From Squalus acanthias (lineage: Eukaryota), in contig CM059431.1 in NCBI GenBank assembly GCA_030390025.1, positions 113,524,001 to 113,588,000 on the forward strand: DNA of 64,000 nucleotides, written 5' to 3'. Made by a program: the position numbers and the translations under genes. The notes under the pieces were generated by a model that was not told where the DNA came from, did no database searches, and saw only the letters and a program-made list of their open reading frames with translations. This document shows, one piece after another, positions 7,336 to 48,466 of this stretch. Within the stretch, counting starts at the first letter, position 1. Each line of letters opens with the position of its first letter.

Positions 7336-8079
7336 GGCCCAAAAATTAGTGAGTGAGCCTTCGTGCGAGGGTAAGGCCTTCCCGCGATCTCTCACTGCGC
7401 GCTGGCTTTTTCAGTCCGAGCTCGCACGAACTTGATGTTCTGGACAGCAGCTATGCAGGGCTTTCGTATCCCGCAGGCGTAGTTAATTCGTGCGAGCTGT
7501 GGGATCACGTGACTCAGTTAGAGCCAATGGCAGCACACCATCTTTCATTCATAGCTTTCACAGCATGGCTGTGAAAGCTATGAATACTATACCCCCCCAA
7601 AAGAACAGCTAAACCTCAATTAAATTTTTTTTAAAAACCATCACATTAATAAAATAAGTATAGTTAAATAAATTAACCATTTTAAACAAAAAATTAAATT
7701 TTTGAAAAAATTTAAAATCTTTTAAAAAGTTATAAAAATAAACTTACCTGTCTTTAAAGTCTCTAAAAAAGATATACCTGTTAAAAAAAAATCAAAATAA
7801 TACTTAATTAAGTACTTACCTTGTTAAAAGAGGGTCTTACACCTCCTTTCTTTATGTCTAAAATCTTCCATGCTTACCTGCGCGTTCAAAGCACTAAGTG
7901 CACTGTGTGCGCGCAACCTGTAGCGCGCACGCGGTTCACCTAGGAACCGCCCCCTTTTGAATTCACCAAGTGCCGGTTTTCAGCGCATGCGCAGTGCATG
8001 CAGAAAACCGGCAATTGGAGACAGAATACGTGAGAGTACACAGTGCGTACTCTCGCGTAGCGGCACTAATTTTTGGGCC
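7336..8079. mobile_element. Harbinger-type MITE, family B (copy 1)
   Basis: Perfect 16-bp TIR ggcccaaaaattagtg, att TSD on both sides and an internal 18-bp palindrome at 7547-7585. Confidence 0.9.
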
Positions 8080-8287
8080 ATTATTTTTAGATGCAAATAA
8101 TCATTATCAACATTTTCTTTATGTATAATGCTGGACACTTTTAAGCAGGGACTATCTTCCATTCAGCATTGACAAACCTATGAAAGTACAATATAAAGTT
8201 TATTATAAAAAAAACACTAATTACTAAGTGTAAGTCTGTTGTCGATTTAAAGGCAGTTTAATTGGTCACAGCCGAATGGCTCTGATA

Positions 8288-8301
8288 CTGCCATCTAGAG
8301 T
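8288..8301 (-). promoter_or_regulatory. Candidate CTCF site
   Basis: Minus strand ACTCTAGATGGCAG matches the CCASYAGRKGGCRS core at 12 of 14 positions, in non-repetitive sequence; motif match only. Confidence 0.3.
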
Positions 8302-10172
8302 CACTGCACCAGTACTACATGCTGAGGAAAGTGGCAATTTACTGAGCGAGATGTAGAGATAGATTTCACGCTCCTGGGATGCATGTCGGAGTGTGAAGTG
8401 ACAAAATATGCCCTAATGTTAAAAAACACGTGTTTGTTATCAGATCTCTTGTGGCACTACCCACGATGAGCTGGAGGTTAGTCTGTTGGGTGGGGGAAGG
8501 TTGAGGGGTGTCCTGGGGTGTGGGATTGGGGGAAAGGTACAAATCTCCAGTGAAAGAATATGAAATTAAATTTCTTCAGACACAGTGAAGTAGTCGTTTT
8601 TGATTGTTTCCTGGAAATAAATTAATGAATTAATTAAATAAATTTGTTGCCCCTCACAACTGCACAAGTAAATAAAACTGTGCAAGTGTCATGGGGGTGG
8701 GGAAAAGGGACATCAAGCACTTTTCAATATAGAACCGGACTTCTGGCTTTCACATGTGTATTCTGTGTTTCTGTAGCTCTCTCATTAATAAACTGGCATG
8801 TCTCCCTGTATGTCAAACCAAGTACTTTTATTTAGCCACAATGGTGGCGTCGTCAAGGCCAAAGTTATCGTTGCTAGCGAGACTATCAAATCTGCAGACT
8901 GTTTTGGAAAATAGACATTTTCTTGGGAAACTATAGATATCATAATATATTGTTAAGATCTACGTTTAGCGGATCCGTATTGCAAACTAAAGCACACAAA
9001 CCAAGTTATGGCTCTCTGTTTTATCCAATAGTGTTCCTTTTAACTTTAAACGCAGCTTTAAACATTAATATTTTGCCTTACAGTTACTGCTATATTTCTT
9101 CTTGCATAGAAGTATAAAATACAAGAGCTTAGAAATTACTGTTTGCGATGTTACTTTGTTGAACCTTTTCGTTCAGCTGAGAGAGTGCAGCCCTGGGAGG
9201 CCCCATGTGCGCAAGTATTTTGCTTCTCAGAGAGGCACTGCCTTCAGCCAGCCGATGCTGGAGACATTTCCAACGCACATAAAGCATTTTTTTTGGAAAT
9301 ATTTTTTACTTTTATTATCTCGCAAACTTATTTCCACTGCTGAGTTCACCTTAGCGAAAAACAAAGGTGGTGGCCAGTAGCATTTTCAAAAAGCATTTGC
9401 AGCAATTTCATTAGTTTCCATTCCGCTCCTTGCATTGGGAGCTTTTTGTTGATGGGCCATTTCTGATTGCTAGTTTTAGTTCCCATTTGGCATCTTGCCA
9501 ACCTTCTCAATTGTGAGTTTTTTTTTGGGCTGATTCATGTGTGTCATGTTCTTTGCCTGGCAAATGTGTCACCTGAGGTAGAATCATTGAATGATACAGC
9601 ACAGAAGGAGGTCATTCGGCCCATCATGCCCGTGCCAGCTCTTTGAAAGAGCTAGCCAAATAGTCCCACTCCCTGCTCTTTCCCCATAGCCTAGCAAATT
9701 TTTCTCTTCAAGTATTTATCCAATTACCTTTTGAAAGTTATTACTGAATCTGCTTTCAAGCAGTGCATTCCAGACATAACAACATGCTGCGTAATTTTTT
9801 TTTGCTCCTGTCGCCTCTGGTTCTTCTGACAATCACCTTCAATCTGTGTCATCTGGTTACCAACCCTTCTGCCACTGGAAACAGTTTCTACTTATTTACT
9901 CTTTCAAAACCCTTCAAGATTTTGATCACCTCTATCAAATCTCCCCTTAACCTTCTCTGCTGTAAGGAGAACAACCCCAGTTTCTCTAGGCTCATCATGT
10001 AACTGAAGTCTTTCATCCCTGGTACCATTCTAGGAAATCTCCTCTACACACTCTCTGAGGCCTTGACATCCTTCCTAAAGTGTAGTGCCCAGAATTGGCC
10101 AGAATACTCTAGCTGGGGTGTAACTATTGTTTTATAAAGGTTTAGCATAACTTCCTTGCTTTTGTGCTCTAT

Positions 10173-12419
10173 GGGCTAAAAATTGGAGAGCGCTAAAAAC
10201 CTGCCGTGCCACCGTGGGCCGGAGTTAACGACTGCCAAGATTAATGGCACTGGCAGGACCGGGATATTGGTGCTGGTTGCTAATTAACATTAGCCTAGCG
10301 CTAAACATACCGTGCAAGGCCGTTTTCATGGCGGTAGTCTCAGCAGGAGGCCCAATGTAGCGTGGCCGTAGCATCATTGCAGCAAGAACAGCCTTCCCTT
10401 AAAGCAAGGCTGTCATTTTAGAAAGCAGTGCGGTCCCTTAAAGGGGAACTGCCTTCTAAAATGAAAAAAATAAAAATCATTTAAAAATAGGCAGTTTTCA
10501 GCCCTTACAGCTCAACTGCCTTCTGAAAAAAAAATTAACAGTAAAAAGAATTCTCAAATGGGAGCCTTCAGCTCTTAAAGCTGGATTTCTTTCTGCACCT
10601 CAAAAAATGGGAAAAGTGCTTCAGCACTGACACAAATGGCTCAGCAAGCCAGGGAAGGGGCACCCAAGGTCTCACACGCAGCACTCCAGCTTTGTGCAGG
10701 GAATCAACACTGCAAGAGAGGTCCTCTACCCACAGGAGCCAGGAGGCCCTCCAGAAAGAAGAATGTGGGACCTGATCACCGAGGCCGTCACTGCCAGCAG
10801 TGTAGCCTCCACGACCTGGCATCAGTGTCTAAAGATGCTTCGTGAGCTCAGATCAGTGGTCACGGTCAGTGAATGTATCTTCAAAAGCCGTTTCCTACCA
10901 ACTGCACCACTAGCATCACACACTTCTCAATGCACCTCCCCCCTCCCCCCTGCACCCCCCCACAATCACTCACCTACCAACAATCTGTACCAAACACAAG
11001 GCACACCTCCCATTCCTAGCTTCACCTCACCCCCTTGGAGGAGACGGTGCTGGCCATTCTTGGTAGGGGCATGGCTAAGCCCTTGACCAGCGGCAGGGCT
11101 GAAAGGATACAAGATGCTGGTATCCTCATACATTATCCTCTTTCATGCACCTCTTGCTTTCCCACCTTCACCTCATCACAACTCCACCCTTGTGTCTTCC
11201 TCATTTCTGACACCCAAGAAATGCAGCCTGCCCAGCCAATGGTTGACCAGGAAGAGGGAGAGGAGAGTGAAGAAGAAGAATAAAAAGAAACACCATCACT
11301 TGATTTCACACTCCCAGCCACCAGCTCCTCAAGGTTGCCAAGCAAGGTAATTTGCAGTGTCCCCCACTGAAAGTCAGCAGCCTTCCACCAGCCATGCTGC
11401 AGTCACTGGGGTAGCACTGCGTGACATCACTAGGATAGGCAAAGGCACACACAAGACAGTCACTAAGGGAATGCATAAGGGTGATGAGTTTATTTCTTGA
11501 TGTCATATTGGATGGATTGATGTATAAATTTGGATTGGAAAGTTTGCTTTGTGGTGGCTTTTATTTCAGCATTGTGGCCAAGAGGACACTGTGATGGTCA
11601 GTAACAGAGGGAAGATAAGGTGTGGGACAAATGTTGAAAGGGGAATTGGGGTAGTGGTCACTGGTACCACAGGTGGATCATTTCATCCTGAATATCCTGG
11701 CCAGAAATAGGCTGTCTGGGTTGCATCCTTCCTTCTGCTTCCTCCACTTCTGCGTCTTCCTCTTCTGCGTCTTCCTCTTCCCTCTGTGAGTGGATGCTGG
11801 AAATCTGAAATAAAAGCAGGAAATGCTGGGAATACTCAGCAGTCAGGCAGCAGCTCGACCTGAGACACGAACTCTGTTTCTTTCTCCACGGATGCTGCCT
11901 GACCTGCTGAGTATTTCCAACATTTTCTGTCTTCTCAGAGGCCTTCCTTTACCAGCTGAGGCCTTGCAAGAGTCCAGTAGCACGCCCTGCACACTTTGAA
12001 AACTTTTAACATGAATTGTACCAAGCCACTACTTCAATAAAATCAAAAAAAAATCCAGTCCAAAAGCTTAAATGCAAAGTTACCTGAAAGATGTGTGTGT
12101 CCCTTTAATAATTGCTGACAGTGTCTCTGTCAGTCTGCTGCACGCTTGCTTTTCAGAGCGCGATTAGGACTCAGCGCAAAACTCAGCGCAAAGGTCCAAG
12201 TTTGCAGAGCGTAACGTTAAGTCAGCGTTGCATGCCGACTGATCTCGCATGCCGACTGATCTCATGCTCTCCATATTTGCATGTCCAGCGCCAGCGCTGC
12301 TACCAAATTGGTGGCCGCCATGCCCCGTGCCAGAGGCGGGCGTTAGAGCAGCGGCCGCCATTTTTCTCCAGGATTTCGGCACACCAACGGGTGGCGGTAA
12401 GTAGCCCAACTTCTGGGCC
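10173..12419 (+). mobile_element. Non-autonomous Harbinger derivative with a decayed Myb/SANT-like gene
   Basis: TIRs gggctaaaaattgg / ccaacttctgggcc with tat TSD. MAQQAREGAPK...WDLITEAVTASSVASTTWHQCLK (10636-10870) is homologous to the Myb/SANT ORF starting at 37581; an acidic transposase tail remnant lies on the minus strand near 11700-11790. Confidence 0.8.
11790..11935. mobile_element. Penelope-like terminal sequences arranged as an inverted pair
   Basis: Both arms match the 3' end of the Penelope element at 62090-62190, one in each orientation. Confidence 0.7.
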
Positions 12420-12437
12420 TATGCCTCTATTTATAAA

Positions 12438-12682
12438 AGTGAGAAGTCGCACAACACCAGGTTATAGTCCAACAGCTTTATTTGAAATCACAAGCTTTCG
12501 GAGCGCTGCTCCTTCGTCAGGTGAAGTGAAGAAATGCATATGGGCACAGCATAAATAGTCAGAGAACAATGCCAGACGACAACAGTTAATCTTTCTAACT
12601 GCCCTTTATCACACCTCGGCAGAGAGACAATCACGGCAATCAAAGGTGTGGATGGTGTCCAACCAGGTCAGTCAGGAAGACA
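12438..12682 (-). mobile_element. Penelope-type terminal unit with hammerhead motif (~245 bp)
   Basis: tataaa TSD at 12432-12437 and 12683-12688 inside CR1; homologous to the 7233 and 29185 units. Confidence 0.75.
12488..12524 (-). ncRNA. Minimal type I hammerhead ribozyme motif
   Basis: UCAC-CUGACGA-A-GGAGC-agc-GCUCC-GAAA-GCUU-GUGA. Confidence 0.75.
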
Positions 12683-13247
12683 TATAAAGCCAAGGATCCC
12701 AAGTATGCCTTTTTAGAGCCTTCTCAAATTGTCCTGCCACTTTCAAAGACTTGTGTATGTACACCCCCAGGTCTCTCTGTTCTTGCACCTCCTTTAAAAT
12801 CGTACCATTTAGTTTGTATTGCCTCTCCTCATTCTTCCTACCAAAATGAATCACTTCACACATCTCATGTGTTTAAATTTCATCTGCTATCTGCCCATTT
12901 CACCAGTTTGTCTTTGTCCTCTTGAAGTCTGTAACTATCCTCCTCATGGTTTACTACATTTCCGATTTTTGTATCATCTGCAAACTTTGAAATTATGCCC
13001 TGTATACCCAAGTTCAGGTCATTAATATATATCAAAAAGAGCACTGGTTCCAACACTGACCCCTGGGGGACACCACTGCATACTTCCCTCCAGTCTGAAA
13101 AATTGTTCACCATTACTCTCTGCTTGTAATAAGGTTGCATCTAATCTTTCTTTCTACACTTTGGTCCTCCCTACATTTTCCTCGCTTTTAGTGCCCCATA
13201 ACACAGAACAGAAAAAGTTACCCAGGCAGCTACCTGGTGGTAATAAT

Positions 13248-14171
13248 GGCCTGAATTTTAATACTTTGGCGGATTGGGAGCAGGGGGGTGCTCGGAAGCT
13301 GTCGGGAAACCTGGGAGAAGGGGTTTCCCGCAGGCTCTGCCGAATTTATCGGCAGGCCCTGATTTGCATTTGAAGCCTCTGTTTCCCACCCGCAACAAGC
13401 CAGATGGAGAGGCTGGGTGGCTGCGGGCGAGAGAAGGGAGGGATTGCGTGAGGGCTGGGGGCTGATCGGGAGGCCGGGGGCTCATTGCGTGGGAGCCGGA
13501 GGAGCAGCGGGGGCCGGGGGCTGATCGAGTGGGGGCCGGGTCTGATCGAGGGGGCGGAGAAGCATCGGGGAGCCGATCGAGTGGGGCCTGGGGGCTCATC
13601 GGGGGGTGGGAAGGCGGACGACATCGAGGGCTGGAGTAGCATTGGTGGGGGGGTGGGGGGGGGAGGCAGATGACATCAGGGGGCTGGAGGAGCATCGTGG
13701 GGGTTGGGGTGGGGTGGGGGAGGGGGGAGAAGGCCGGGAAGGCGATCGGAGTCCTGGGGTGGAGGGGTGGAGGGGGGAATCACATGCCTCGTGGTGGGGG
13801 GGGGGGGGGTGCTCTCCAATTGCGGGGATGGATTAGGTAGGGACGCTGGATTCAGGATTTTACCTCCTGGATCCAGCAGTCCTCACCTTACTTTAGCTGG
13901 CGGGTTTCACGAGGCCTGCAAAAACTGACCAGCCACTGTTAAATTTAAAATGGTGGTTAAATCTGAGGCATGTCAGCCTCATTATAATATTTAAATGGAC
14001 GACCTGCCTCCTGGGAGGGGTTGGCTACCCGCCCCCGCACCCCCCCTTCCCGCCTCTGTTAAAACTGGAAGTGTGCGGGTTGGAGGCAGGTTCTGGTCGG
14101 GATTCAGATTTTTAACACTAACTTCCCACCCGACCCCAACCCACCCTTTTTTTGCAGTTAAAATTCCCTCC
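13248..14171. mobile_element. Harbinger-type MITE with G-rich tandem interior
   Basis: Ends ggcctgaattttaa / ttaaaattccctcc with aat TSD; the right half resembles 679-1412. Confidence 0.75.
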
Positions 14172-18942: not shown

Positions 18943-19696
18943 GGCCCGGATTTTGCGGTGGGTATGATGGTGTACTCAGAGTACGCTGTAATACCGCCTT
19001 TGAAATCCACCACAAGTTTGGGATTTCCACGTGCGCTTGCACTAAATCCCGAACTTGCGGTCTGTCAACGTACGCCTTGACAGGCCATCCGCTCCGCCAT
19101 CGAAAACCTATCTGCCGGCGTAGAGTTGGGCTAATTGGCCACCAACTGCCCAGCAATTACATACCAAAATTTTATGGCTGGTGCAAACAGGCGCAGGGCC
19201 TATTTGCACAGCGTAAGGGGATACCGAAATGAAAAAAAATGCTTTTTCAAAAAAATTAAATGACAGCCAGGAACATTAACAGCTTTAATGAGAAGCAATC
19301 CTAGTGTATGGTAAAGCTGCAGATTTAAAAAAAAAATAACATTTACATTTCATAACGTTCTGCACAGTATTTGTTTAGAAGTGGGAATTATGAATAATGA
19401 ATTGGATTCCCATGTTAAAAGTTATGTATTTTAAAGACTGTTCTAATGAAGTAATGCAGTAATTTAAATGAATGAAAGACAATCTGTATTCTGATTGGAG
19501 GACCAGGCCCACGTGATCCCAGGTACGCTTCTGCACAGGCGGCGTTGCTGGGATCCGTGGGCCATTACGCTGCCTTCCTACTTGCAGTGTCAGAGCGCAA
19601 GTTTACACAGGAGGGCCCCCATCAGGTAGGTGCGTATTCTTTTCGCAGCTTAGCAACGTACTCCAGAGGTACGCCACCGACCGCAATTTTTGACCC
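18943..19696. mobile_element. Harbinger-type MITE related to family B
   Basis: Imperfect TIRs ggcccggattttgcgg / ccgcaatttttgaccc, AT-rich middle, and the gattgg...cccacgtgatcccagg module shared with family B. Confidence 0.65.
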
Positions 19697-26135: not shown

Positions 26136-26999
26136 GGGCTGGATTTTACTTATTGAGACAAGTTGGGGCGGGACTGCTGTCTTCCGGGTTCTAGTCCCCC
26201 CCCCAGTGACGTCTGATGAACAGACGCTATTTTGCCCTGATTGGCCTTGTTAAGCCCGCCCTGCGGGCTTGCCGGCCAATTAAAGGAAAGTCGGTTTCAG
26301 ATGACGTCAGTTGATGACGCTTCATCTGCCGGTTTTCTTAAAGGCATATGCACCACACTTGTTTGACAGATGATTTGACAGTGTTTGACAGTATTGAGGT
26401 GCTGTCGAACACTGACAATCACTGTACACAGGTGAGCCCTTTCACCCAGACTCTCCAATTACTCTCTCCTTAGGATAAACCAGATGGCAGCTGCAGCTGA
26501 GATTGCAGAAGCCATCTGTCACTTCTCCCGATGAGATGAGGCTACACAAACACTTCACAGCTTGTCATCTGCAGAAACATCTAACCACATTAAAAATTAC
26601 TTTCACAACATTTTATTACCTCTGATACTAACCATTGTCCCATTGTATCCTTCACACCACTTCTGCAGCTGTCATCCAAACACCAACATAACAACAGACC
26701 CACAGCACGCCTCACTTACCCTGGCGGGGTTCCCGACGTCGGGAAGCCCGCAGCAGCAGTTGAAAAATTGGGAAAAGTCTCTTAACTGCCTGTTAACTAC
26801 CTGTTAACAAGCAGTTAAGTGTCTACAATCCTCTTCCCGCCGCCAGGAGTCGGGTCCCTGCGCAAATCGGGGACCCGACTCCGGGAAGATTGGTTGGAGG
26901 CAGGTTGGGAGCGGGTTCGGTACCCGCTCCCGTTCTTTTTGACTTTCCCAGCAGTCCCGCCTCCAAACCCACCTCCTTAGGGTTGGTAAAATCCAGCCC
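26136..26999. mobile_element. Harbinger-type MITE
   Basis: Perfect 14-bp TIR gggctggattttac / gtaaaatccagccc with att TSD on both sides. Confidence 0.85.
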
Positions 27000-29140: not shown

Positions 29141-29184
29141 CTCTGGAGAAAGTATGCCATTCCCCATGGGCATACCTTTCTATT

Positions 29185-31125: not shown

Positions 31126-32038
31126 ATCTTGCTACAGTTCAAAAGTACAGCATTGGCTGTGAAGCACTTTGGGATGTCCTGAGGTTATGAAAGGTGATCT
31201 GCTCCTTCATTCCTTCCTTTCTTTCTTACGGTGTAAATCACAGTATTCTGCTTTACTTGCCATCATACTACAATGATCAACTCATACACTCAAAAATTGA
31301 CAAACATTTGGAATTAAATTATTCATTTTAAAAAGCAATTTGAATTATATTTCCCCAAACCCAAACCAACTCCAGCGTCCCAGGCAGAGCGCTTTGTAAA
31401 TTCTTCATTTCACCATGTATAGGGTGAGCATTCATTTCCCAATTCCACAATACATCTTTTCAGGACCTCTTTGACAGCAGGGTAACGATAGTTCTAATAT
31501 TTCAGAGTTCTATCAATAATGCCCTGGATACCTTCAGCCCTCCCCTGATTTGCACTCGGCCACAATTTCATTTTCTATTCTAAGCCCTGACGTGCATTGA
31601 CCAGCTTCAGACTGATATACGCTGTGGATGTCCTGCTCGCTGGGGAGCAAATCATCCTGAGACTGCCAAAAAACTGATTTCATTTTTGACTCATGAGAAC
31701 TGCTGTGGTGATGTCTTTAGTAACTCTGCTTTGAACAGGATTCAATCCACATTCAGCGCTGGGTTATTTTATGCTCTGGAAACCACCCAAATAAGATGAA
31801 TGAAAAACCCAGTCACAACTTGTCAATCACGAAAAACAGCAGTGAAAGAAGAAACTAGCAACAATCCAGACAGGTCTCAGTAATCTCTCATAAATGCTGC
31901 AGGAAGGAATACATAAGAACATACCTTCCAGGCCACAAGCCAGTTATCTATGGAATAAAAAGATTGCTTTGCAAACTTGTCTTGTGACACATCATTGCCC
32001 TTGTGAGAGTGTTATCAGAAATGTGAAAGGTGCCAAGT

Positions 32039-32797
32039 GGGCCAGAAATTCGGCTCCCTGGCTTCCTGCGGGTGCAAGGATCGCGCGCGCACCTACCTAC
32101 CGCACCTGCTGTTGACCCCTGGGCCCACGGGGGATTCCGGTCCTGGGCCTCCTCCAACTGCCGGTGCGCAGTGCTTGCGTATCCCAGGGGCGTAGTTAGT
32201 GTGATGCGTCCCTTGGGATCACGTGGGCCATGGAGAGCCAATGGCAGCAGATCATCTTTCATTCATAGATTTGACAGGACCTGTCAAATCTATGAATACA
32301 GATCGGCCCCAAAACATCACTAAAACTACAAATATTTTTTTTTTTTAAAATCACATTTTTAAAATAACTATAAATTACATTAATTAACTATTTTAAACAA
32401 AAATTTAAATTTTTGAAAAAATTAATTACACTTTTTAACGGGGCTAAAACTAAACTTACCTTTCTTTAAAGTAATTAAAAAAGATAAATCTGAAAAAAAT
32501 GTTTAAATTTTAATAAAATCACCACTTACCTTGTTAAAAGAAGGCCTTGCGCCTCTTTTTCAATGTGCATCTTCTCCGTGTTTACCCTCACGGAGGAACC
32601 TGTAAAAAACCCGAGGTGCGAGGCGAACGCGCTGGCCCTCCGGCGTGTGCGTTCGACCTCTGAACCCCTTCCTTCAGGGGAACGGAAGTGCCGGTTTCCC
32701 ACGCATGCGCAGTGCATGCAAGAAACCGGCACTTTCGTTCTGTCCACGGGTGAGTACATAGTGCGTACTCAACCGTGGCGAGCCTAATTTCTGCCCC
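32039..32797. mobile_element. Harbinger-type MITE, family B (copy 2)
   Basis: TIR gggccagaaattcgg / cctaatttctgcccc; palindrome at 32261-32297; colinear with the reverse complement of 41361-42125. Confidence 0.9.
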
Positions 32798-32815
32798 AAT
32801 ATCTGTAAAAAATAT

Positions 32816-33166: not shown

Positions 33167-34412
33167 CATGGGAGATTGGCTACATCTGCATTCCCTTCAT
33201 GAGAATACCTAAAAGTCACTCTCAAGGCTTCAGCCAAGCTTGATCAAAATAGATAAAAGGTCACTGCAAAATCAATCTGGAGCAAAGCTTCAACTCCCTC
33301 AACATCTATGTTAGTTTAATCAAAATCGTAGCTCTTGCACTTACACGCTTATCAATATTTGCAACCCCCGATTATGCGCGGGGAGGGGGGGAGAGGTGGC
33401 AATGACTGATGAAATAGCCCCGTAGTCCTTTGTGCATATCTCTTCTGCGCATGTACTCAAACATTACGCACGTTTAGAAGAGATAATGGATTATGGAGAA
33501 ACTTATGGGCGATTTAAATGTCAGTGGATCACTGAGCTTTTGGGGAACAGGGCGAGCAGCCAAAAATCCAGACAATTGGCAACTATGTGCTAAGGACCTG
33601 GTGTGAAACTTGAATAGATAATCTTCTAACTCAAAGGCAAGAGTGCTATCAAATGTGCCAAGCTAACACTTCCAAAATACACTGTGAAGCCTATTGTGAC
33701 AAACATGAAGCATTACTGTCTACAATGTATCATGACAGTGGCTTCTTTTTTCCTGCCCCAATACATATGGGTCTGTCCTATATTCCTATGTCTTGTTAAA
33801 ATTGAGGTGTCTGTGTGAAGCCATCAGCAAAAAATGTAAATTAGCCAGATAGAGACATTGTGGATGGTCAGCAACATGTAAAGGTTAGTATTCAGAGGCA
33901 GTGGGCGAGAAATTGGGCTTGTTGGCGCCCGTTTTTTGGGGTGCTACGAGTGCCCTTAGAGCTTAAAAATGTCATCCACGGCGCGCGTGCACACTTGTGG
34001 GGCAAATCGCGCCTGATGCCATATTGATGCAGGCGTGAGTGCGCGCAGTAAACATCCACCGAAAGTATGCAGAGTAGGCAGATCATAACATCAATCAGCG
34101 TGCAACACTGATTTGACGCTAGCGGTGCCATTTTGGAACTCAACACTTCAGCCAATGCCCTCTCTTAACCTCGCACAGCTGAACATGCGTTCAGCAGCAG
34201 AAAGAATTCCCAACCAGCACTACTTAAAGGATCATCAACTACTTACACATTAGTTGCTGATTGATCTCTATTGGCTGTTGGTATAATTCTACAAGTGTTT
34301 GGTGCTTTCTAAAGTTGTTTCAAGTTGCAAATGTCTACAGGGAGTGGTGTGGCAGGTGCTGAAGGACTTTTTGCTGACTTCAAGGCTTCGCAGAAACCAG
34401 TTGCTCCCAGAC

Positions 34413-35470
34413 ATGTGTGCACGAGTAAAAATTCCCCGTGGAATACAGCATGACTTGGAGAATGAACAGGGGCCACGTAGAGCAGGACAAGCTGCTGGAA
34501 GAGGGAGGAGGAGGAGGGGGTGAAGGGCTCTCAGCAGGCGGCCATATCCACCCAGGGTGTTCAGGGTGCAATTCTCCTACCTGAGCCTCAGTGAGGAACA
34601 GTACATGCGACGTCTGCGCTTCAGTAAGGATGGCCTTACTGAAATCTGCCGCCTGCTGCAGCCACAAATGCAACCACAGAGCAGGGCAAGGACCACATTA
34701 CCAGTGGCTGTGAAGGTGACCTGTGAGGCTCTCTATTCAAAGAGAGCTGACTACAATTCATTCTCTCTTGCCAGAGACAAGCAGGCAGAGTGAGCACGTG
34801 GATTCGCTAGGATTGCAGGCTTCCCCATGGTGCAAGGTGCCACTGACTGCGCGCACATTGCTTTGCGGGTGCCTCATGTCAACTCTGGCCTATATCGGAA
34901 CCAAAAGGGATTCCACTCCCTCAACATCCATCTGGTGTGTGACCATAGGCAGCGAATCATGCGGATTAATGCCCGTATCCTGGCAGCAGTCATGATGCCT
35001 TCATTCGGCGGCAGTCCGCTGTGCCAGCTGCATTTGAGCCACCATGGCAAACCAAAGGGTGGCTACTGGGTGACAAGGGCTATCCGCTGATGACATGGCT
35101 GATGACTCCAGCGCACAACCCATGCAGATGTGCACAGCATGCAGCCAATGAAAACCATGCTGCCACACGAAATGTGATAAAGCAGACCATTGGCGTGCTG
35201 AAACAACGCTTTCGCTGCCTCGACTGCTCTGGAGGAGCCCTGTAGTACTCGGCAGAGCGGGTGTCAAGATTCATGGTGGTCTGCTGCACAATGTTGTCAT
35301 CATGAGAGTACAGCCCTTGCCACCAACTACACGGCGAGCAGCTGAGGAGCAGGATCATGAGGAGGTGGTGGAAGAAGGGGAAGAGGAGGAGGAGGAAGGG
35401 AAGAGGCAACCTAGACAGCCCCTTTCTGCCCGGGCTGTCCATACAGAACTCATCCAAGTGTGATACCAGT
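34413..35470 (+). pseudogene. Harbinger DDE transposase (HARBI1-like family), disrupted
   Basis: RRLRFSK...LPVAVKVT, VQGATDCAHIAL, NQKGFHSLNIHLVCD, WLLGDKGYPL and HAATRNVIKQTIGVLKQRFRCL, then an acidic tail; frameshifts, stops and an internal deletion near 34722. Confidence 0.92.
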
Positions 35471-35559
35471 AACTGCAAATCCCAATTCACCATCAGTCCC
35501 ACACCTTACCTTCCCTCTGTCACTGACCATCACAGCATCTGCTTGGCCACAATGCAAAA

Positions 35560-37581
35560 CTAAAAGCCACCACAAAATTGTAGCTCAGCATAGCTGGTGG
35601 AAGGCTGCTGACTTTCAGTGGAGGAGACTGCAGATGGCCTTGGAGGATGACCTCGAGCAGCTCCAGACCTAGAAGGCCCAGCTGCGGACTGCATAACCTC
35701 GGCATGGGCGGCAGCAGTCTGGGCTGCCTGGCTGACAGGCAACAGCAAGGGCACTGGTGGAGTGGTAGTGGTGGGAGCAGGAATGCTGCCATCCTGAGAG
35801 GGGACAGCAGGTTCGTGCTCCACGGAGCCACTGCCAATTCCCCGGGGCGGCGCCTCAACAATCCTAGTAATCGGTTAGAGGACAGATTGGCGGACTGCTG
35901 TGACACCCTGCAAGCCCCTTTGAACACTGTAATCCACAGCCATGATGGCAGCAGTCTGAGCTTGCATGGCAGCACTCAGACGTTGGGTGGCTGCTGTTTT
36001 TGCTGCAATGGAAATGACGACATCGGCCACCAGGTGCTGCATCATGGTTTTGTCCACGAGTGTGCGAAAGGAGCTGGCTGCCACTTCCATGCTGGGAAGG
36101 ATGGGCTCCAAGCTCTGCGCTAAGCCCTGTGCCAAGTTGGTGCTGGACTCCTCCATGCTCCTTGACATTGAACACAGGCTTTCTGGCAGGCCACCCGTTG
36201 CACCAAGCATTTTGTTGTGGACACCCTTCAGCCTTCTTCTGTAGTGCTCATAGGAGTCCTCTGTAGCAGAACCCATGTGAGACCTCACCCTCCGGCGAGC
36301 TGGCACCTGCGCTATCCTTGCCCCCTGCCAAGGCTGCAGGCCACTCGTGCCCGGTGTCTCACCATGTGCAGATCTCGCCTCTATGCTATCCTCTAAAATT
36401 ACGTGCAGTGTCACTGACGTAATAAAGACTCACTACGCACTTGAACATAAAGCAAGGCTTTAATCAACTTGTAACGAAACATGGAGGTCTAGTTAGCAGT
36501 CACTAGCTTCCTGTTTCCAGATTGTCTCTGCCCAAGGTGGGCCCATGCCTGAGTATTTATACTCCCTGGACGGCGCCCCAGCTGGCCACCCAGTAGTACT
36601 TCCTGAGTTGTTACTTGCGACTTATGACAGTCACTATCTGAGCTGGTGGCTGCGAGAGTGAAATTGAATAACGGTGTTTCTTCATCGTCACTGTCTTCTT
36701 GATCTTCCTCCACTGCCTGGCCAGGTTGCACTTCTTGGGTATCTGAAAGGAGAAAGGCACAAGGGTAAGATTGTGGTGAGGGGGGAGGGGGGAAGCAAGA
36801 GGTGCATGCTTACACCATCTGCAGCTTGTAAGTCAGAAGAGATTGTGGGATGAGGAGAAAGTGAGATGTGAGAAGGAGGATTAGGTATGAGGATACGTCA
36901 TCTTCAATTGATTCAGCCCCGCCGCTGGCCATGGGCTCAGCAATGGACGTTCCAATAATGGCCAGCAGCGTCTCCTCCATGGGGTTAAGGACATGCGGCT
37001 GCGCCTGTCCCCCTGCAGGTATCCCGCGCTGCCTCCGGTTGTGTGCCACCTTGTCCCACAAGAGAGAGGAAAGTGTGTCAGTGAATGTGGTGCAATCTGT
37101 TTGGGTGATGTGGCTGTCATGGTTAAATAGCTGGCAGTGTTTGCAAGCTGTGAGATGTGGGTGTGAGGCTTGCAGCAGTGCTAAGTGTGTGAGGGTGAGG
37201 TGAAGCACATGAATGTTAGGTATGAGTCCTGACTGATAGAGATTGTTGGTAGATGAATGATGGGGTGTGGTGAATTGAGGACATTCTGAGGCTAGTGGTG
37301 CAGTTGGTGGGATATGGCATTTGAAGATGCATTCATTGACATTGACCACTCGTGTGAGGTCATTGGACTTCTTGCGGCACTGTATCCCAAGTCCTCGGGG
37401 CTAGACTCCTGGCATTGACCGCCACGGCTATCTACTCCCACTGCCTTTTGAGCATGTGTCTCGAGGGCCTCCTGGTCCCCTGCAGACACAGAACATCTCT
37501 CCTCCTTTCTACCTCCTCTACCAAGGCCTCCAGTGCTGCGTCCGAAAACTTTGGAGCCTGCTCTCTCCCCTGTTGTGTCAT
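35560..37581 (-). pseudogene. Harbinger Myb/SANT-like DNA-binding protein gene, about 3 exons, disrupted
   Basis: ATG at 37581 begins APKFSDAALEALVEEVERRRDVL...KRQWE*IAVAVNARSLAPRTW/QCRKKSNDLTR. A second coding block is at ~37055-36895 (KVAHNRR...LNPMEETLL). A ctttcag acceptor at ~36745 leads into acidic and coiled-coil-like regions. Confidence 0.85.
36415..36629 (-). mobile_element. Solo LTR (215 bp)
   Basis: TG...CA ends with short imperfect terminal IR and 5-bp TSD gtcac (36410-36414, 36630-36634); TATAAA and downstream ATTAAA on the minus strand. Confidence 0.8.
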
Positions 37582-37959
37582 TCTTCTCTGTTTACCAGGT
37601 CACATTCATTTCCTGCCGACTCCCAACACCTGCTCCAGTCACAATGCACCTCCCCTTTAAGAGGTGCAGGCTAGCTTTAACTGGTGCAAGCAAGTTACAA
37701 TATTGGCCCCCCTGCTGATGTGTCCAGCCAATGAACAGCATGGTTAGCGATGGCTAGATGCAGAGATCATTCAAATGAGCAGGCAGCACGAAGTTGGTGG
37801 GCTGTATGCATTGCAATCAACGGGCGCAGGTTAATTGCGCTTCACGATCCCCACGCCCGTTTTGGGGGTCTATCCAATTTAGTCCCCCTTGTGTCCAGTC
37901 TAGTTCACAACTGTTCATTATTTTTCTATTTAATCTAAGGAAGATTAGCTAAGGCTGTA

Positions 37960-40655: not shown

Positions 40656-41360
40656 GTGTTCGTTCACAGCTAGAGGATATGGGGTATACCAGCAAATACT
40701 GGCTGCTTTATGACATCAGCTAAAATGCAATTACTACATAACTCCTTCAAGACTTCTAGAAATCGCTAATCTCTTTCATTTCTCACTATGTAATTTTTGT
40801 CTAACCTCTCTCTTCCTTGTTCTTAAGCATCTTCTGATTGTTCCCAGCCAAGCTAATTGACTTGACTGTCTCTTCCTTCAACTGTGTGCTCTTTCATTCC
40901 TCCCTAGTCTGCTTCTCTAGCTTGCCTTTTCACATGGCTTTGCACCAGATGCATGAACTAATTAGATTGATTCTAATCAGTGCTGGTCTTTGTGGTTCTT
41001 GAAACCCACTCTCAAAAGCAGGGTTTTCATAATCAGTAGGGGACAGGCCATGTTGTTGTAAACTAAGAAGACAGGAATCTCAGCAAGAATGGAAAGTAAC
41101 CAGAAGATAACCCACACAACGTAATTTTAATAGGCTAGCTACACTCAACCTAAAATGATGCAAAATTGGTTAAAATACAGGCATTTGCAAAGACCTCAAA
41201 ATTACATTCGGGTCGCTTTAAATCTCATCCCTATAATCAAAGAATGAGAAATGTAAAATTAAAACATTTAACGTACATGAGAGGGAAATTTCCTGTAGCT
41301 GGAAGATTTAGTCCTGGCAGGGACCTTACAGGGAGGGAAAGTCAACATAGAAATGAAATT

Positions 41361-42125
41361 GGGCCAGAAATTCGGGTCTCCACGGGTGAGTACACGCTGT
41401 GTACTCACCCGTAGACCCAACGAAAGTGCCGGTTTCGCGCATGCACTGTGCATGCGCTGGAAACCAGAACTTCCGTTCCCCTGAAGGAAGGGGTTCAGAG
41501 GTCGAATGCGTGCGCCGGAGAGGCAGCACGTAGACCTCGAACTTCGTTTTTTTTTTCAGGTTTCTCCGTGAGGGTAAGTACGGAGAAGCTGCGTGGGGAA
41601 AAAGGAGGCGCAAGGTCTGCTTTTAACAAGGTAAGTGGTGAATTAAGTACAATTTAAACATTTTTTCAACAGGTTTATCTTTTTTACATACTTTAAAGAA
41701 AGGTAAGTTTATTTTTAGCACCGTTAAAAAGTGTAATTAATTTTTTCAAAAATTTAAATTTTTGTTTAAAGTAGTTAATTTATGTAATTTATAGTTATTT
41801 TAAAAATGTGATTTAAAAAAAACATGTATTTGAAGTTTTAGTGAGGTTTTGGGGCCGATCTCTATTCATAGATTTGACAGGTCTTCCTGTCAAATCTATG
41901 AATGAAGATTCCCTGCTCCGATTGGCTCTCCATGACCCACGTGATCCCAGGGGACACTTCGAACTAACTGCGCCCCTGGGATACGCAAGCACTGCGCGCC
42001 GGCAGCTGCAGGAGGCCCAGGAGCCGAATTCCACGCGGGCCCTGAAGCACAACGGCAGGCGCGGTAGGCAAGTACGCGCGCGATCCTTGCACCCGCGGGA
42101 AGCCGGAGAGCCGAATTTCTGGCCC
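41361..42125. mobile_element. Harbinger-type MITE, family B (copy 3, opposite orientation)
   Basis: Perfect 15-bp TIR gggccagaaattcgg; palindromes at 41382-41412 and 41864-41903. Confidence 0.9.
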
Positions 42126-42235
42126 AATACTGCAGATGCTGGAAATCTGAAATAAAAACAGAAAATGCTGGAGGAACGCAGCAGGTCAGGCAGCATCTGT
42201 GAAGAGAGAAACAGAATAGAAATGAAACAGTTAGT
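42126..42235 (-). mobile_element. Penelope-like 3' terminal fragment
   Basis: Reverse complement of 62110-62200. Confidence 0.75.
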
Positions 42236-42259
42236 CTCATTGTCCCAGCAATGACTTAA

Positions 42260-42705
42260 AAAGAAAGAAAGACTTACATTTATATTGCGTCTTTCACATC
42301 TCAAAGCACTTTGGAGTGGAGTCACTGTTGTAATGTGGGAAACGCGGCAGCCAATTTGCACACAGCAAGCTCCCACAAACAGCAATATGATAATGACCAG
42401 ATCATCTGGGTTTTTTTTGTTATGTTGATTGAGGGATAAATATTGGCCAGGACACCGGGGATAACTCCCCTGCTCTTCTTCGAAATAGTGCCTAGGATGT
42501 TTTACATCCACCTGAGAGAGCAGACGGGACCTCGGTTTAACATCTCATCTGAAAGACGGCACCTCCGACAGTGCAGCACTCCCTCAGCACTGCACTGGGG
42601 TGTCAGCCTAGATTTTTGTGCTCAAGTCTCTGGAGTAGGACCTGAATCCACAACCATTCTGACATCAGAGGTGAGTGCGCCACCCACTGAGCCACAGCTG
42701 ACACT
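42260..42705 (-). mobile_element. SacSINE1-like DeuSINE, near full length
   Basis: tRNA-like head, Deu-like core, L2-type tail and (tctt)n end; homologous to 2883-4410. Confidence 0.88.
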
Positions 42706-42904
42706 TAGAGCAGCATTCGGTGTTCTTCCCTTCTTATGTTTCTTTATTCCTTCCTTCCACATTTTTCCTCTATAGAAAACCACATTCTTCAGTTAAATGA
42801 ACGACGGATTTAAAAAAAAAACTGAACACATATCTAGAAACCTATACCAGTGATATTGTGAGGTAACATGATTCTTTGATGTGTTACCACAGACAGAGTG
42901 ATGT

Positions 42905-43665
42905 ACTGAGGCTGAACCACACTGTTCGCAACCATGGTGTCATATTTGACCCTGAAATGAGCTTCCGACCACATATCCGCAGCATAACAAAGACCGGCTA
43001 CTTCCACCTCCGTAACATCGCCCGTCTCCGCCCTTGCCTCAGCTCATCCGCTACTGAAACCCTCATCCATGCCTTTGTTACCTCTAGACTCGACTATTCC
43101 AACGCACTCCTGGCTGGCCTCCCACATTCCATCCGACGTAAACTTGAGGTCATCCAAAACTCGGCTGCCCGTGTCCTAACTCGCACCAAGTCCCGTTCAC
43201 CCATCACCCCTGTGCTCGCTGACCTACATTGGCTCCCGGTTAAGCAGCGCCTCGATTTCAAAATTCTCATCCTTGTTTCAAATCCCTCTATGGCCTCGCC
43301 CCTCCCTATCTCTGTAATCTCCTTCAGCCCCACAACCCTCCGAGATATCTGCACTCCTCTAATTCTGCCCTTTTGAGCATCCCTGATTATAATTGTTCAA
43401 CCATTGGTGGCCGTGCCTTCTGTTGCCTCGGCCCTAAGCTCTGGAATTCTCTGCCTAAACCTCTCCGCCTCGCTACCTCTCTTTCCTCCTTTAAAACGCT
43501 CCTTAAAACCTACCTCTTTGACCAAGCTTTTGGTCACCTGCCCTAATTTCTCCTTATGTGGATCAGTGTAATTTTTTTTTGTCTTAAAATACTCCTGGGC
43601 AGCGCCTTGGGATGGTTTCCTACGTTAAAGGCGCTATATAAATACAAGTTGTTGTTGTTGTTGTA
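42905..43665 (+). mobile_element. L2 LINE 3' fragment
   Basis: YFHLRNIARLRP...[20 protein letters not shown]...QNSAARVL...LHWLPVKQR, then a (gtt)n tail. Confidence 0.92.
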
Positions 43666-43767
43666 ATAATACAATACATTGTGAAACCTATCTCTGACAC
43701 GTTGGCTTCACAATGTGCTTTACTATTATTTGATGTGTAGAGGCAGGCTTCAGCAATTAAACATATT

Positions 43768-44653
43768 GGGGGACATATTGGTTTGCGCCTCCTGTTAGCG
43801 CCGTAAGAGGGCGCTAATGGGGCGCAAAGCAACTAGCGCCCGGGCGCGGCGATGTTTGCACCGCTCGTGAAATTGACCAGATATTTTGTGGCAGCGCTAA
43901 ATACTACCGCCACGATCACCTGCGCCCGCATGTCGTGACATCAGTCGAGCATGCAACGCCTCAGTAGCGCCCCGGACCGGATATTGAGTGGCGCTCCCTG
44001 CCTTACCGCCTGTCGCTAGCAACGACAGGTTGAGGAGAACATTTTGCAGTCAGGAAGGGACTGAGGGATGCTATTTAAAGGCGACCGCTTCCTGCCTTTT
44101 TTTGGTCGGCGACGTTTTTGCACCACGCATTCTGAGTGAGAGAGAGAGACTTCTGGAGATATTCAACGCTGTGTTGAGGAGTTTTGGGTACTGAGCAACA
44201 CTTTGCAGGTTCATTTTGATTTGATCTTCCTTGCATCGATTTAGAAGAGACTTGGGGGCTGCACTCTGAACTCTTTCCCATGGCCTCTCCATTGTTCTTT
44301 CCAGCAGATTTGATGTACAGGTCTCTCCAGGCCGAGATTCAAGGCTGCAATGAGCAGGGTGTGGATGTAAAGCAAGATCGACCCTTCCCTTTAAGAACTG
44401 GCCGGCGCCAGTGTGTCTGTGTTCCATTGCTGACTGACATCACATGAGCTTCGCCAGCGCTCTGAGGTAGCGCCTCGCTCCTCAGCGTTAGCACCTTAAA
44501 AGAGGTGTGTAGCGCCTGATTTAGCTCTCCAATCACCTCCAGGGGCGATAGAAGCCAAGTTTGCAGTCGGAGGCGATAATTAGCGCCAGGCGCTAAACTT
44601 TGCGCCCGGCCGATAATTGCGCCCCAAACGGGGCGATACCGAATTTCTCCCCC
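43768..44653. mobile_element. Family C-related Harbinger-type MITE
   Basis: Ends gggggacatattgg / ccgaatttctccccc with att TSD; first ~80 bp match 5752-5840. Confidence 0.8.
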
Positions 44654-44929
44654 ATTAAGCCCACGAGGTAATCATGGTATTGTTAAAGGGCCACTGGCCA
44701 ATTTGGGCTCAGATTGCAACCAGCTGAGTTTTCTAATTTATAGTGAACTGTAAATATTTATTGAAGATAAAGACTGTGTACTTGTAAGAAATCTCAGGTT
44801 TACAGAACATGCAAACCAGAATGCAATGATCGCTCAGAAAATGAATACATTTCCATAGAGTAAGTTAGTTTTCTCTGCTTTTGCGCTGTCAGTTTATTGT
44901 TCTATACCTTATGAGCTCGAAAGAAGAAT

Positions 44930-45080
44930 GGGGTGAGACTGGCCAACACCAGTAGTGCAAAAAAAATTGATAGTGAATCAGCAGCCCGTTTTACACAGGT
45001 GACCAATTTTCTTTTCCATGGTATGGTGTAAAGCGGGCTGCCGATTCACTATCAGCCTAGTTGTTGACCAATTTCACCCC
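44930..45080. mobile_element. Small fold-back MITE
   Basis: Ends ggggtgagactgg / ccaatttcacccc; internal IR tgatagtgaatcagcagcccgttttacac / gtgtaaagcgggctgccgattcactatca. Confidence 0.7.
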
Positions 45081-46789
45081 AAAATGTAACAAGCATAATT
45101 ATTATATTATCTCTGTCAGTAATAAAAACTAATTGGGGTAGATTTTCATCTTCACTGCCTGGTCAGTAATCTGGCAGGGCAGATCAGCCACCTGTTATAG
45201 AATCCACTTGATTTTCATTTCCTGCCTTCCTGTCTCCTATCCTAGTGCTATGTCTAAGTGTTTTCTGAGGGACCTGCAGGGCAAGAGGTGGTTGGCACCT
45301 CACGCTACACAAAAGGTTCATGGGACTGAACGGTCTTCGACTCACGGAAGATGGCTCTTGAGAGAGAGCCGCCACTGGCTGCATCTCTGGAGGCTGCTCC
45401 TGGGCAGCCTAGGCTCGCCTCCAACACCATACACTGACATACGCTGAGCATGCTGGAGTACTGGCATGTGCTGCTCTCTTGAGAGATGGCGGTTACAAGT
45501 ACAAGGACTTCAGTCACCATCATTTTACTGGACCCTGGATCTGCAACCCCAATGATCAGTTGGATATCTGGTCTAATGGCAGCTATCAGATCTACCCAGC
45601 CCAGAGACATGGCAGTAATCACCATCTGGAAGCTGCAATCAATGTTGCCTCCAGAGCTACAGTCTGTGCTTCCATGAAGGTGGAAGCACAACTGATCCCT
45701 GGCTGCCTCTCATCTGGGGCTCCGCTGCAGATGTCAACACAGCTGCCACTTGCTGCATTGTTGCCTGCAAGGAAGAGAAACCTTCCAAGATGTTACCGCA
45801 AAGGAGAGCTGTAGACTCGACAGACACACCTGCAATTGTTGCACATCCTGGGAGGTTTTCCTCAGAGGCTGTACATAGGATTGATGTTCCTCCAACATCC
45901 TTCATGGGCGAGTGTCCATGAGTTCTGGGTTTCACAACTCTGAAGTCATCAGCAGCCTTCTTCACCAGAGGGAAGGTAGAACATCGTCTCCCATGCTCAG
46001 AACTGACCTGGTGGTAATTCCTCAATATCATTATCTAAATCTCACCCCCAGGTGAAAGTCCTTTGGGGTGGTGCCTAGGAGAGAGGAAGTCAGTTATGCA
46101 GGTGGTCATCTGTGGGAGATGTTTGGCCCAGAGGTGGGTTGGTCGGGTTGGCTTGGCTCTCCCTATTGCCAAGGCTTCTTGTAGTCCTCTTCCCTCTCAT
46201 AGGTCACTAGGCTGAAGGATGGGCCCAGGCACTGTTCCTTCTCCTCTTCCAGTGGCTCCTGTGGCTGTGGTGGATCTACAGGAAAGCAGATTTGGAGAAG
46301 GAGTGAGTTTGACTCCCTTGGGATGAAGGAGACAAGAGGATGGAAGGTTGTATATATATATATTCAGATAGGGCTGGTAGGGCGGCATTGTAGGTGCTGA
46401 GTTACTCACCTAGTCCTGACCTAATGACTCTGGCACAGAAGAAACTATTTGAGGATCTAACAAGCTGTTAGTATAAACTAGTGTAAAAATAATAATATAC
46501 TAATTTGAAAATTATTCTATTATCCTGCATGGAGATTCTCTCTCTATTGGCTGCAGCATCACGAACAGCAAAAGAAATGATGAACAAAAAAAGTAAAAAA
46601 TAAAATAAAAATGTAAATTGAAAACAGGATGCATAAACTATGTCTGTACTTATGTATGCAGGTGCCATAGTTCTGCATGTGCAATGTTTTCTTTGAGTCT
46701 TTTTCTTATTTATTCACAATTTCTTGTGTTGGTCCTCCATTCTTCCTGTGGCTCCTGTGGAGCTATAGAAAAGCAGATGTTGTTGCTCT

Positions 46790-47370
46790 TTTGCTGCTGA
46801 AACCCTCATCCATGCCCTTGTTACCTCTAGACTTGACTATTCCAACGCACTCCTGGCCAGACTCCCATCTTCCACTCTCCATAAACTCTGCTGCCCGTGT
46901 CCTAACTCGCACGAAGTCCCATTCACCCATCACCCCTGTTCTCACTGATCTACATTGGCTCCTGGTTGAGCAATGCCTCAATTTTAAAATTCACATCCTT
47001 GTTTTCAAATGCCTCCATGGCCTCGCCCCTCCCTATCTTTGTAACCTCCTCCAGCCCTACAACAGTCTGAGATCTCTGCGCTCTTCAAATTCTGGCCTCT
47101 TGCGTATCCCCGATTTTAATCACTCCACCTTTGACGGCCGTGCCTTCAGCTGCCGAGGCCCTGAGCTCTGGAATTCCCTCCCTAAACCTCTCTGCCTCTC
47201 TTTCCTCCTTTAAGACGCTCCTTAAAACCTTTGACCAAGCTTTTGGTCATCTGCCCTAATATCTCCTTATGTGGCTTGTTATCAAGTTTTGTTTGATAAT
47301 GCTCCTGTGACGTGCCTTGGGACATTTTACTACGTTAAAGGCGTTCTATAAATGCAAGTCGTTGTTATGG
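46790..47370 (+). mobile_element. L2 LINE 3' fragment
   Basis: [26 protein letters not shown]...GLAPPYL...LWNSLP, then an L2 tail. Confidence 0.9.
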
Positions 47371-47514
47371 GTATGAGAAAAAATCTGCAGAATTATGAGC
47401 CAGCTGCAGTGGAGCATGAGGAGGCCTCATGAAACTGCTACTGGTTTGAATTGGATGGCTTCAACGGCTGCCAGGAACACAGACAGCGGATGGGGTTGTA
47501 AAATGAGTTAACTC

Positions 47515-47815
47515 TCATAGGAACAGAAGTAGGCCATTCAGCCCCGAGAGCCTGTTCCATCATTTAATTAGGTCATGGCTGATCTGTACCTGAACTCCAT
47601 TTATTCAACTTTGATCCATATTCTTTGATACCTTTACCTAATAAAATCTGTCGCTGTTGAATTGAACCAGCATCCACAGCCTTTTGGGGAGAGAATTCAT
47701 CATTGCCGTTATTCTTTGTGTGAAAAAGTGTTTCATTATTTCACTTCTGAATGGCCTAGCTCTAATTATAAGATTGTGCCTGCTTTATTCCCTCACCAGA
47801 GGAAATGGCATCTAT
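47515..47815 (-). mobile_element. Decayed CR1 3' end
   Basis: cataggaacagaagtaggccattcagccc 3' UTR in reverse orientation. Confidence 0.7.
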
Positions 47816-47870
47816 ATCCAAAGATGTAATACCTCAAATGCGTCACACATGGAAACTGTCATAACACATC

Positions 47871-48466
47871 GGCCTAGAAATTCGATTCGGAGGCTTGCCG
47901 CGGGGGTAAGGATCGCGCGCGATATCACCCACCGCGCCAGCCGTTGTGTTTTGGGCCCACAGGAACTTCGGGTCCTGGGCCTCTCCCAAGAGCCGGCGCG
48001 CAGTGCTTGCATGTTCCAGGGGCGCAGTTAGTGTGATGCGACCCCTGGGATCACGTGGGCCATGGAGAGCCAATGGCAGCAGACCATCTTTCATTCATAG
48101 ATTTGACAGGAGACCTGTCAAATCTATGAATTGAAATCGGCCCCAAAAGAACAGCTAAACCTCAAATAATTTTTTTTAAAAAACCATCACATTAATAAAA
48201 TAACTATAGTTAAATAAATTAACCACTTTAAACAAAAATTTTAATTTTTGAAAAAATTAAAATACTTTTTAAAAGTTATAAAAATAAACTTACCTTTCTT
48301 TAAAGTCTCTAAAAAAGATAAACCTGTTGAAATTTTTTTTAAATTATACTTAATTAACTACTTACCTTGTTCAAAAGGGGTCTTACGCCTCCTTTTTACT
48401 TGCGTAGAATCTTCCATACTTACCCTCGCGTTGAAACCTGAAAAAAAACCTAAGTGTGCTGCGTGC
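47871..48466. mobile_element. Family B MITE (copy 4), right end missing at the HE1 SINE junction
   Basis: Left end ggcctagaaattcg and palindrome at 48093-48131; colinear with the 32039 copy. Confidence 0.85.

Follow-up and report, generated by a model that had tools for sequence, protein, structure and literature searches.

The 64-kb window analyzed here (positions 113,524,001 to 113,588,000 on the forward strand of Squalus acanthias contig CM059431.1) contains four copies of a transposable element, designated family B, each of which carries an inverted repeat with perfect 18-bp arms. We observed mirrored changes in several helices of the element, including this repeat; the changes occur at the level of subfamilies, and imperfect variants of the repeat accompany them. 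The type of element and the mutational process that we favor are already known; mirrored palindrome change that extends over a whole element appears to be what is new.

Judged from its sequence, family B is a nonautonomous, noncoding Harbinger-type element of ~750 bp, and the Harbinger-type identity assigned to it in the original prediction, which was made from the letters of the window, is supported. Boundaries were determined by alignment and pairing of the TIRs (terminal inverted repeats), which yielded three full copies and one partial copy with pairwise identities of 69–88% in an alignment of the copies in the window. Copy 1 (7336–8079; 744 bp), which represents a divergent subfamily, and copy 2 (32039–32797; 759 bp) lie on the plus strand; copy 3 (41361–42125; 765 bp) lies on the minus strand. 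Copy 4 (47871–48465, plus strand, delimited by alignment) lacks the right end and is followed directly by a repeat that is presumably SINE-like (short interspersed nuclear element). The 14-bp TIRs begin with GG and match at 14 of 14, 12 of 14, and 14 of 14 positions in copies 1, 2, and 3, respectively. As given in the available text of PMC4482050 (this and the other cited works were accessible in part), elements of the PHIS group have TIRs shorter than 60 bp that start with A or G and duplicate TWA as the target in PIF/Harbinger proper or ANT in Pangu. The short TIRs of family B fit the first description. Its 3-bp flanks (ATT/ATT, AGT/AAT, and ATT/AAT in copies 1–3) include no TWA, and all six follow the A-N-T pattern loosely, with a single identical pair (copy 1). 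The middle base differs between the two sides in the other two full copies (32036–32038 and 32798–32800; 41358–41360 and 42126–42128), and the flanks of copy 3 are reverse complements of each other. [quoted passage not shown] No open reading frame of at least 120 amino acids is common to the copies; frames of this size, the domains of which were not scanned, overlap copies 3 and 4 only.

Many other elements in the window have ends that resemble those of family B. These include a decayed two-gene Harbinger element (33903–37888, plus strand) with a similar TIR, in which a DDE transposase is encoded on the plus strand and a Myb/SANT protein on the minus strand. The Pfam match to DDE_Tnp_4 is strong (E = 1.7e-16), while that to Myb_DNA-bind_5 is weak and below the cut-off (E = 0.008); among the closest database relatives of a piece of this remnant, 13 of 14 bear the name of a shark and the remaining one that of a ray. 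Despite its TIR, the remnant shows no blastn similarity to family B and is probably not its parent, and no autonomous parent was found in the 64-kb window. A second decayed two-gene Harbinger element (10173–12395), with converging genes like those of the first, aligns with it piecewise at 68–77%; Pfam matches were obtained for the element at 33903–37888 only. Pangu elements are said to lack a Myb-like frame (available text of PMC4482050), whereas one is found in the nearby Harbinger remnants.

The 18-bp inverted repeat is located at 7547–7585 in copy 1 (a variant with a 3-nt spacer), 32261–32297 in copy 2 (1 nt), 41864–41903 in copy 3 (4 nt), and 48093–48131 in copy 4 (3 nt), with the letters and spacers originally described. 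It occurs once per element, about 220 bp in from the end. About 1e-5 such repeats would be expected in the window by chance, and the longest perfect repeats after these have arms of 14 bp. The variable spacer had been taken as an argument against an RNA loop. That argument fails because all four repeats, as DNA or RNA, fold with 3–4-nt loops; although the 1-nt spacer of copy 2 was correctly read, the fold there has a stem of 17 bp and a 3-nt loop. The variable spacer would instead speak against one rigid dimer that spans both arms.

The repeat starts 17–18 bp after a module composed of an E-box (CACGTG) and a CCAAT box (7506–7528 on the plus strand in copy 1) that lies in invariant blocks common to all four copies, and it is probably part of a promoter remnant. 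The two boxes are separated by 12 bp in all four copies and by 11 bp in a sister MITE (18943–19696, minus strand) of similar size and layout. These distances fall within the 10–12 bp reported for composites of NF-Y with USF (PMC4889920, in part). The sister element contains the module and an outer ATTCAT motif. It has no perfect repeat, and the place where the repeat would lie shows no fold (z = –0.8). Its similarity to family B is confined to the E-box/CCAAT block and a GTACTC/GAGTAC palindrome in subterminal position. Motifs at 41573, 41630, and 41702 of copy 3, and at matching places in copies 1, 2, and 4, are what we take to be splice-donor-like sequences. Such motifs number two to four per copy on the minus strand of the element versus one on the plus strand, and two of them lie in blocks that do not vary among the four copies. 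Poly(A)-signal hexamers show the opposite bias (12 on plus, 2 on minus).

Mirrored changes in the arms and across the element

In comparing the four copies, we found that the flanks differ by 13–33%, whereas none of 34 aligned arm positions differs among copies 2, 3, and 4, as the original prediction held. Its claim of compensatory substitutions in all four copies stands in part. The mirrored changes are real, but they amount to one contrast between subfamilies, copy 1 against three pairs of arms, because the arms of copies 2, 3, and 4 are identical. Three mirrored changes had been counted; two are unambiguous and exceed chance (3e-4 to 8e-4), while the third is the loop-closing pair beside a spacer that has been wholly replaced. 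Nor is it supported that symmetry is maintained rather than sequence: 15 of 17 positions in the arms do not vary across the four copies.

Mirrored change is not unique to the 18-bp repeat. Three other internal helices, described here with their coordinates in copy 3, show it as well: helix A (41944–41982), with 10-bp arms and a 19-bp spacer, which overlaps the beginning of the E-box block (both sides changed in 2 of 10 pairs); helix D (41419–41477), near the other end, with 18-bp arms around an inner 10-bp palindrome (5 of 18); and helix E (41382–41412), a subterminal 14-bp palindrome (3 of 14). The spacers of the four conserved helices measure about 3–23 bp. Taken together, the four helices comprise 59 pairs in the three full copies; both sides have changed in 12 of these, 2 in the 18-bp repeat and 10 outside it. 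The 59-pair structure was derived from the same, related sequences, and the shuffle controls are weak. For the three other helices, taking as pairs only those that are Watson-Crick in copy 3 and examining them in copy 1, we counted 7 compensated pairs, 4 changed on one side, and 2 noncomplementary among 39 (permutation P = 5e-6). Two nonconserved GC-rich repeats of copy 3, which are outside this count, yielded no compensated, 8 one-sided, and 1 noncomplementary pair of 18. The TIRs of family B likewise differ in mirror fashion.

Contigs from other organisms place the change in copy 1 within a wider subfamily. Twenty sequencing runs, comprising seven organism codes, one unlabeled run, and one metagenome, are listed as matching, several with small shares; none is labeled as RNA, from which nothing follows about expression. 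Contigs from four of these runs, representing four organisms, were placed on 301 bp centered on the repeat of copy 4 (5144, 1737, 252, and 67 contigs, figures that are not copy numbers); the variants considered are the 40 listed of 56. One contig of run X19, from another organism, spans both arms and contains the copy-1 change at 48105 together with its mirror at 48119, and both changes also occur in runs X6 and X1. The change is thus a subfamily trait that predates insertion of copy 1. The copy-1 subfamily accounts for 18–19% of left-arm depth in two of the four runs.

The contigs also reveal that the arms are not always perfect. The same contig of X19 is changed at 48101 without a match at 48123 and has a 7-nt unpaired center; its depth is 31, compared with 3–5 for the shallowest contigs listed. 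The 7-nt center was seen in X6 too, and a one-base insertion in the spacer makes up 1–27% of depth across runs among the variants listed. In each of the four runs, an A-to-G change at 48126 constitutes 19–42% of depth, and no corresponding change was counted at 48098. This change is probably unmirrored, and only probably, because clustered differences are clipped; the clipping is evident at 48015, where a change common to copies 1–3 goes uncounted in the contigs, and it limits in the same way the unmirrored status of an A-to-T change at 48101 in X1. Variant places in X1 are distributed similarly between arms (2 of 34) and flanks (24 of 262; P = 0.75) among the variants listed, with 8 more places outside the list. 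A pattern anchored on the E-box/CCAAT flank matched neither viral contigs (0) nor metagenome contigs (0).

Perfect inverted repeats are concentrated in Harbinger-type elements as a whole. All 15 with arms of at least 10 bp fall within such elements, which occupy 16.3 of the 64 kb, and none falls in the other 47.7 kb; at a threshold of at least 9 bp, 22 of 25 do so. Seven lie outside family B, compared with a shuffle mean of 0.04. An AT-rich quasi-palindrome of family B (48238–48263 in copy 4) is imperfect in copies 2 and 3 and has been perfected in its left arm in copy 4 and in its right arm in copy 1. It is imperfect in 88–92% of contig depth in three of the four runs and in 15% in the fourth. 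Perfection from opposite sides fits template switching; slippage in A/T runs could yield the same.

A transposase profile identified 75 loci in metagenome contigs and none in viral contigs. Perfect repeats of at least 11 bp number 23 in these loci, versus 0–2 in five shuffles, but the loci are unannotated and redundant, which renders the count uninformative. None of them matches family B, and a TGACAG pair occurs in one only. Four of the loci (L028, L029, L030, and L033) look like one family and contain the same perfect 21-bp inverted repeat (L028: 3838–3891), ~110 bp ahead of the region that matches a Harbinger-like transposase.

Origin of the symmetry

Arm-to-arm copying was among the three options originally raised, and we consider it the best explanation, with an even chance of being correct: template switching between arms, which would take place in the mobile lineage and affect a repeat that belongs to a promoter remnant and does not have to be exactly symmetric. 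According to this model, a nonautonomous Harbinger-type element would carry an inverted repeat next to a promoter. In the few copies that still transpose, DNA polymerase may occasionally take one arm as template for the other, and one such event would fix or erase a change in both arms together. Most likely this would happen when the gap left by excision is repaired, which is how cut-and-paste elements gain copies. Daughter copies would inherit perfect arms that then decay at the pace of the flanks, and a lineage that passes repeatedly through gap repair should gather and symmetrize repeats everywhere, as is seen here. We infer both that template switching occurs in these elements and that it does so during gap repair.

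Previous studies, each available in part, lend this model its precedents. Template switching converts near-perfect into perfect inverted repeats and generates compensatory changes without selection (PMC5453318; PMC8794818; PMC8604942). In yeast, template switching was found to perfect an 18-bp inverted repeat while breaks were repaired by gene conversion, a process in which mutation is 1000-fold above that of replication (10.1101/2023.08.09.552703). The spacers of short inverted repeats in human cells are more mutable than their surroundings, with which the variable center of the 18-bp repeat agrees (PMC5737083). Template switching is recognized by, among other marks, changes that are mirrored between the arms of an inverted repeat with a short spacer, and family B exhibits them. 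We also count in favor of template switching the sister element, which lacks the repeat and keeps the promoter module. Most likely, then, exact symmetry is a mutational outcome rather than a requirement, and symmetry by itself shows no function.

Several observations weigh against template switching as a sufficient account. Neutral copying between arms predicts drift at the rate of the flanks, yet the arms are invariant in copies 2–4 (variation at 0 of 17 positions, versus 117 of 461, or 25%, of the remaining non-CpG columns; P ≈ 0.007). Copy 1 differs from copies 2 and 3 at 2 of 17 arm positions compared with about 30% elsewhere (P = 0.07–0.08). Slower change than neutral copying predicts favors some selection on the sequence. 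Other blocks, including the E-box, the CCAAT box, and AT-rich stretches, are equally invariant; among copies 2–4, there are 14 invariant runs of at least 10 bp, and the longest (22 bp) lies outside the arms. Helix mismatches lean toward G.T on the top strand (11 versus 3 A.C, P = 0.057; background transitions are 36:36), which a strand-neutral process does not predict. The comparison covers only four copies with the repeat in full. At a decay of 3% per copy, the upper estimate, four perfect copies have a probability of 0.012; this rises to 0.055 at 2% and to 0.36 at 0.7%. The lowest figure is the approximate decay of copy 4, which departs from the near-universal allele at two places in 301 bp among the variants listed, and the upper bound for copies 2–4, from non-CpG singleton columns, is 2.7–3.6%. 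By inspection, none of the four spacers is the reverse complement of another, so that the clearest mark of template switching is absent. Finally, the element boundaries behind the count of 15 of 15 perfect repeats were drawn by hand with the repeat positions already known.

The best-surviving alternative, unlikely but to be taken seriously, is that a DNA-binding protein, either the Myb/SANT protein of the element or a host factor, recognizes the two arms as inverted half-sites, the sequence of which is selected in the mobile lineage. Symmetry would arise because both half-sites track one protein, and template switching would help. Conservation of the arm sequence itself argues for such sites, as does the position of the repeat directly after an E-box/CCAAT pair with the 10–12-bp spacing of NF-Y and USF (PMC4889920, in part). 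The inner arm motif, TTTGACAG/TGACAG, is present as three direct copies at 26364–26386, one of which matches the arm over 10 bases, and as an inverted pair separated by 5 bp at 12116–12132, where a decayed autonomous element has its transposase-side end. Precedents come from the accessible parts of two papers: piggyBat is regulated by internal palindromic transposase sites (PMC11707139), and mPing is tuned by internal sequences (PMC9921582). The motif is common, however: of its 50 occurrences in the window, 28 fall outside the drawn elements. The sister element lacks it at the matching place. The copy-1 subfamily alters the middle of the motif in both arms and still reaches the share of left-arm depth given above in two of four runs, and a spacer that ranges from 1 to 7 bp would rotate the half-sites relative to each other. 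A TALE/NF-Y composite fares no better: the CCAAT box lies 29 bp from the TGACAG-like motif of family B versus 11 bp in the TALE DECA/CCAAT composite, and the motif is lost in copy 1 (10.64898/2026.02.16.706105, in part). As to its wider occurrence, the motif recurs 228–279 bp from a TIR in two families that cannot be aligned with family B, as the direct copies given above in one and the inverted pair in the other, and TGACAG-type clusters, inverted or direct, lie near the ends of three other Harbinger-type families (12116–12132, 26364–26393, and 19062–19083).

Less probable still is a reading in which selection acts on a series of hairpins formed by a single strand, which would be RNA or else single-stranded or cruciform DNA at some stage of transposition. 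Covariation is seen in all four conserved helices, and the short variable loop suits a stem-loop. The last 200 nt of the element (41361–41575 in copy 3), which covary more than the 18-bp repeat, have fold z-scores of –5.5 to –9.1 in all three full copies. The excess of G.T over A.C at unpaired positions points in this direction, and the variant at 48126 would, if unmirrored, give a top-strand T.G pair. However, that excess does not reach significance, 1 of the 11 G.T mismatches is an artifact of the 1-nt spacer, and 11 further mismatches are neither G.T nor A.C. Both strands of the right end fold about equally well, and the conserved motifs that we take to be splice-donor-like indicate the opposite strand. 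MicroRNA precursors have stems longer than 30 bp; the repeat has a core stem of 17–18 bp and at most 27 pairs with bulged extensions, and no Rfam match was found in the window. To our knowledge, Harbinger transposition has no single-stranded step. It is more doubtful again that the whole element is selected to fold as a single top strand, a hairpin row closed by the TIRs in which the 18-bp repeat would be the most stable stem; the element-wide covariation and the G.T lean fit this idea, and neither proves it.

Very improbably, nothing maintains the repeat, which would have arisen once, free of CpG and slow to change, so that the mirrored changes are one old inherited event: the single contrast in the window, arms that contain no CpG, other blocks that are just as invariant, and the similar share of variant places in arms and flanks of X1 are compatible with such descent, but mirrored changes in four separate helices and the TIRs need repeated events, and the explanation fits the 18-bp repeat alone.

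Relation to known systems and significance

Family B shares with PHIS MITEs and Tourist-like mPing short TIRs that start with GG, 3-bp flanks, many copies, and the absence of a shared coding frame (PMC4482050; PMC9921582). As with other PHIS MITEs, two-gene Harbinger remnants with similar TIRs lie nearby, and internal sequence can affect mobility (PMC9921582). It differs from them in that its flanks are A-N-T rather than TWA, its 750 bp are large for a MITE, and it keeps promoter and splice-like motifs. The original statement that standard MITE biology does not explain an internal feature of this kind goes too far, inasmuch as internal cis-sequences have a precedent in mPing; in the mPing study, no sequence-specific element was found in the interior, and the accessible text mentions no covarying internal palindromes (PMC9921582).

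Quasi-palindromes altered by template switching resemble family B in that arms become or stay identical by mirrored changes of several bases, for which selection is not needed (PMC5453318; PMC8794818; PMC8604942). The cases described in the available portions of these papers concern host genes, rRNA, and reporters, whereas family B is a DNA transposon in which no spacer inversion was seen. In piggyBac and piggyBat, palindromes likewise lie inside the element, away from the tip, where they could bind an element-encoded dimer (PMC11707139). The piggyBat sites, which belong to another superfamily, are repeated and lie within about 120 bp of the end, in contrast to the single, more internal repeat with a variable center in family B. 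Likeness to NF-Y composites extends to the E-box/CCAAT distances of all four copies and of the sister element (PMC4889920, in part). We found no description of internal palindromes that evolve in mirror fashion across a whole Harbinger MITE or DNA transposon lineage in the literature searched, which was accessible in part and did not extend to Repbase and most subscription papers; in the available text of a survey of teleost Harbinger elements, the words palindrome and hairpin do not occur (PMC9179366).

If one of the alternatives to template switching is correct, the repeat would mark either a control site inside the element that is so far unmapped or a step of Harbinger transposition that is single-stranded, and if the whole element folds, vertebrate Harbinger transposition would involve a structured single-stranded step or an RNA partner. 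If arm-to-arm template switching is the correct reading, compensatory changes in repeats would be no proof of a functional RNA or DNA structure. Cut-and-paste transposons would gather and perfect palindromes as a by-product of multiplying, and these abundant shark elements would constitute a natural experiment on template switching in the vertebrate germ line.

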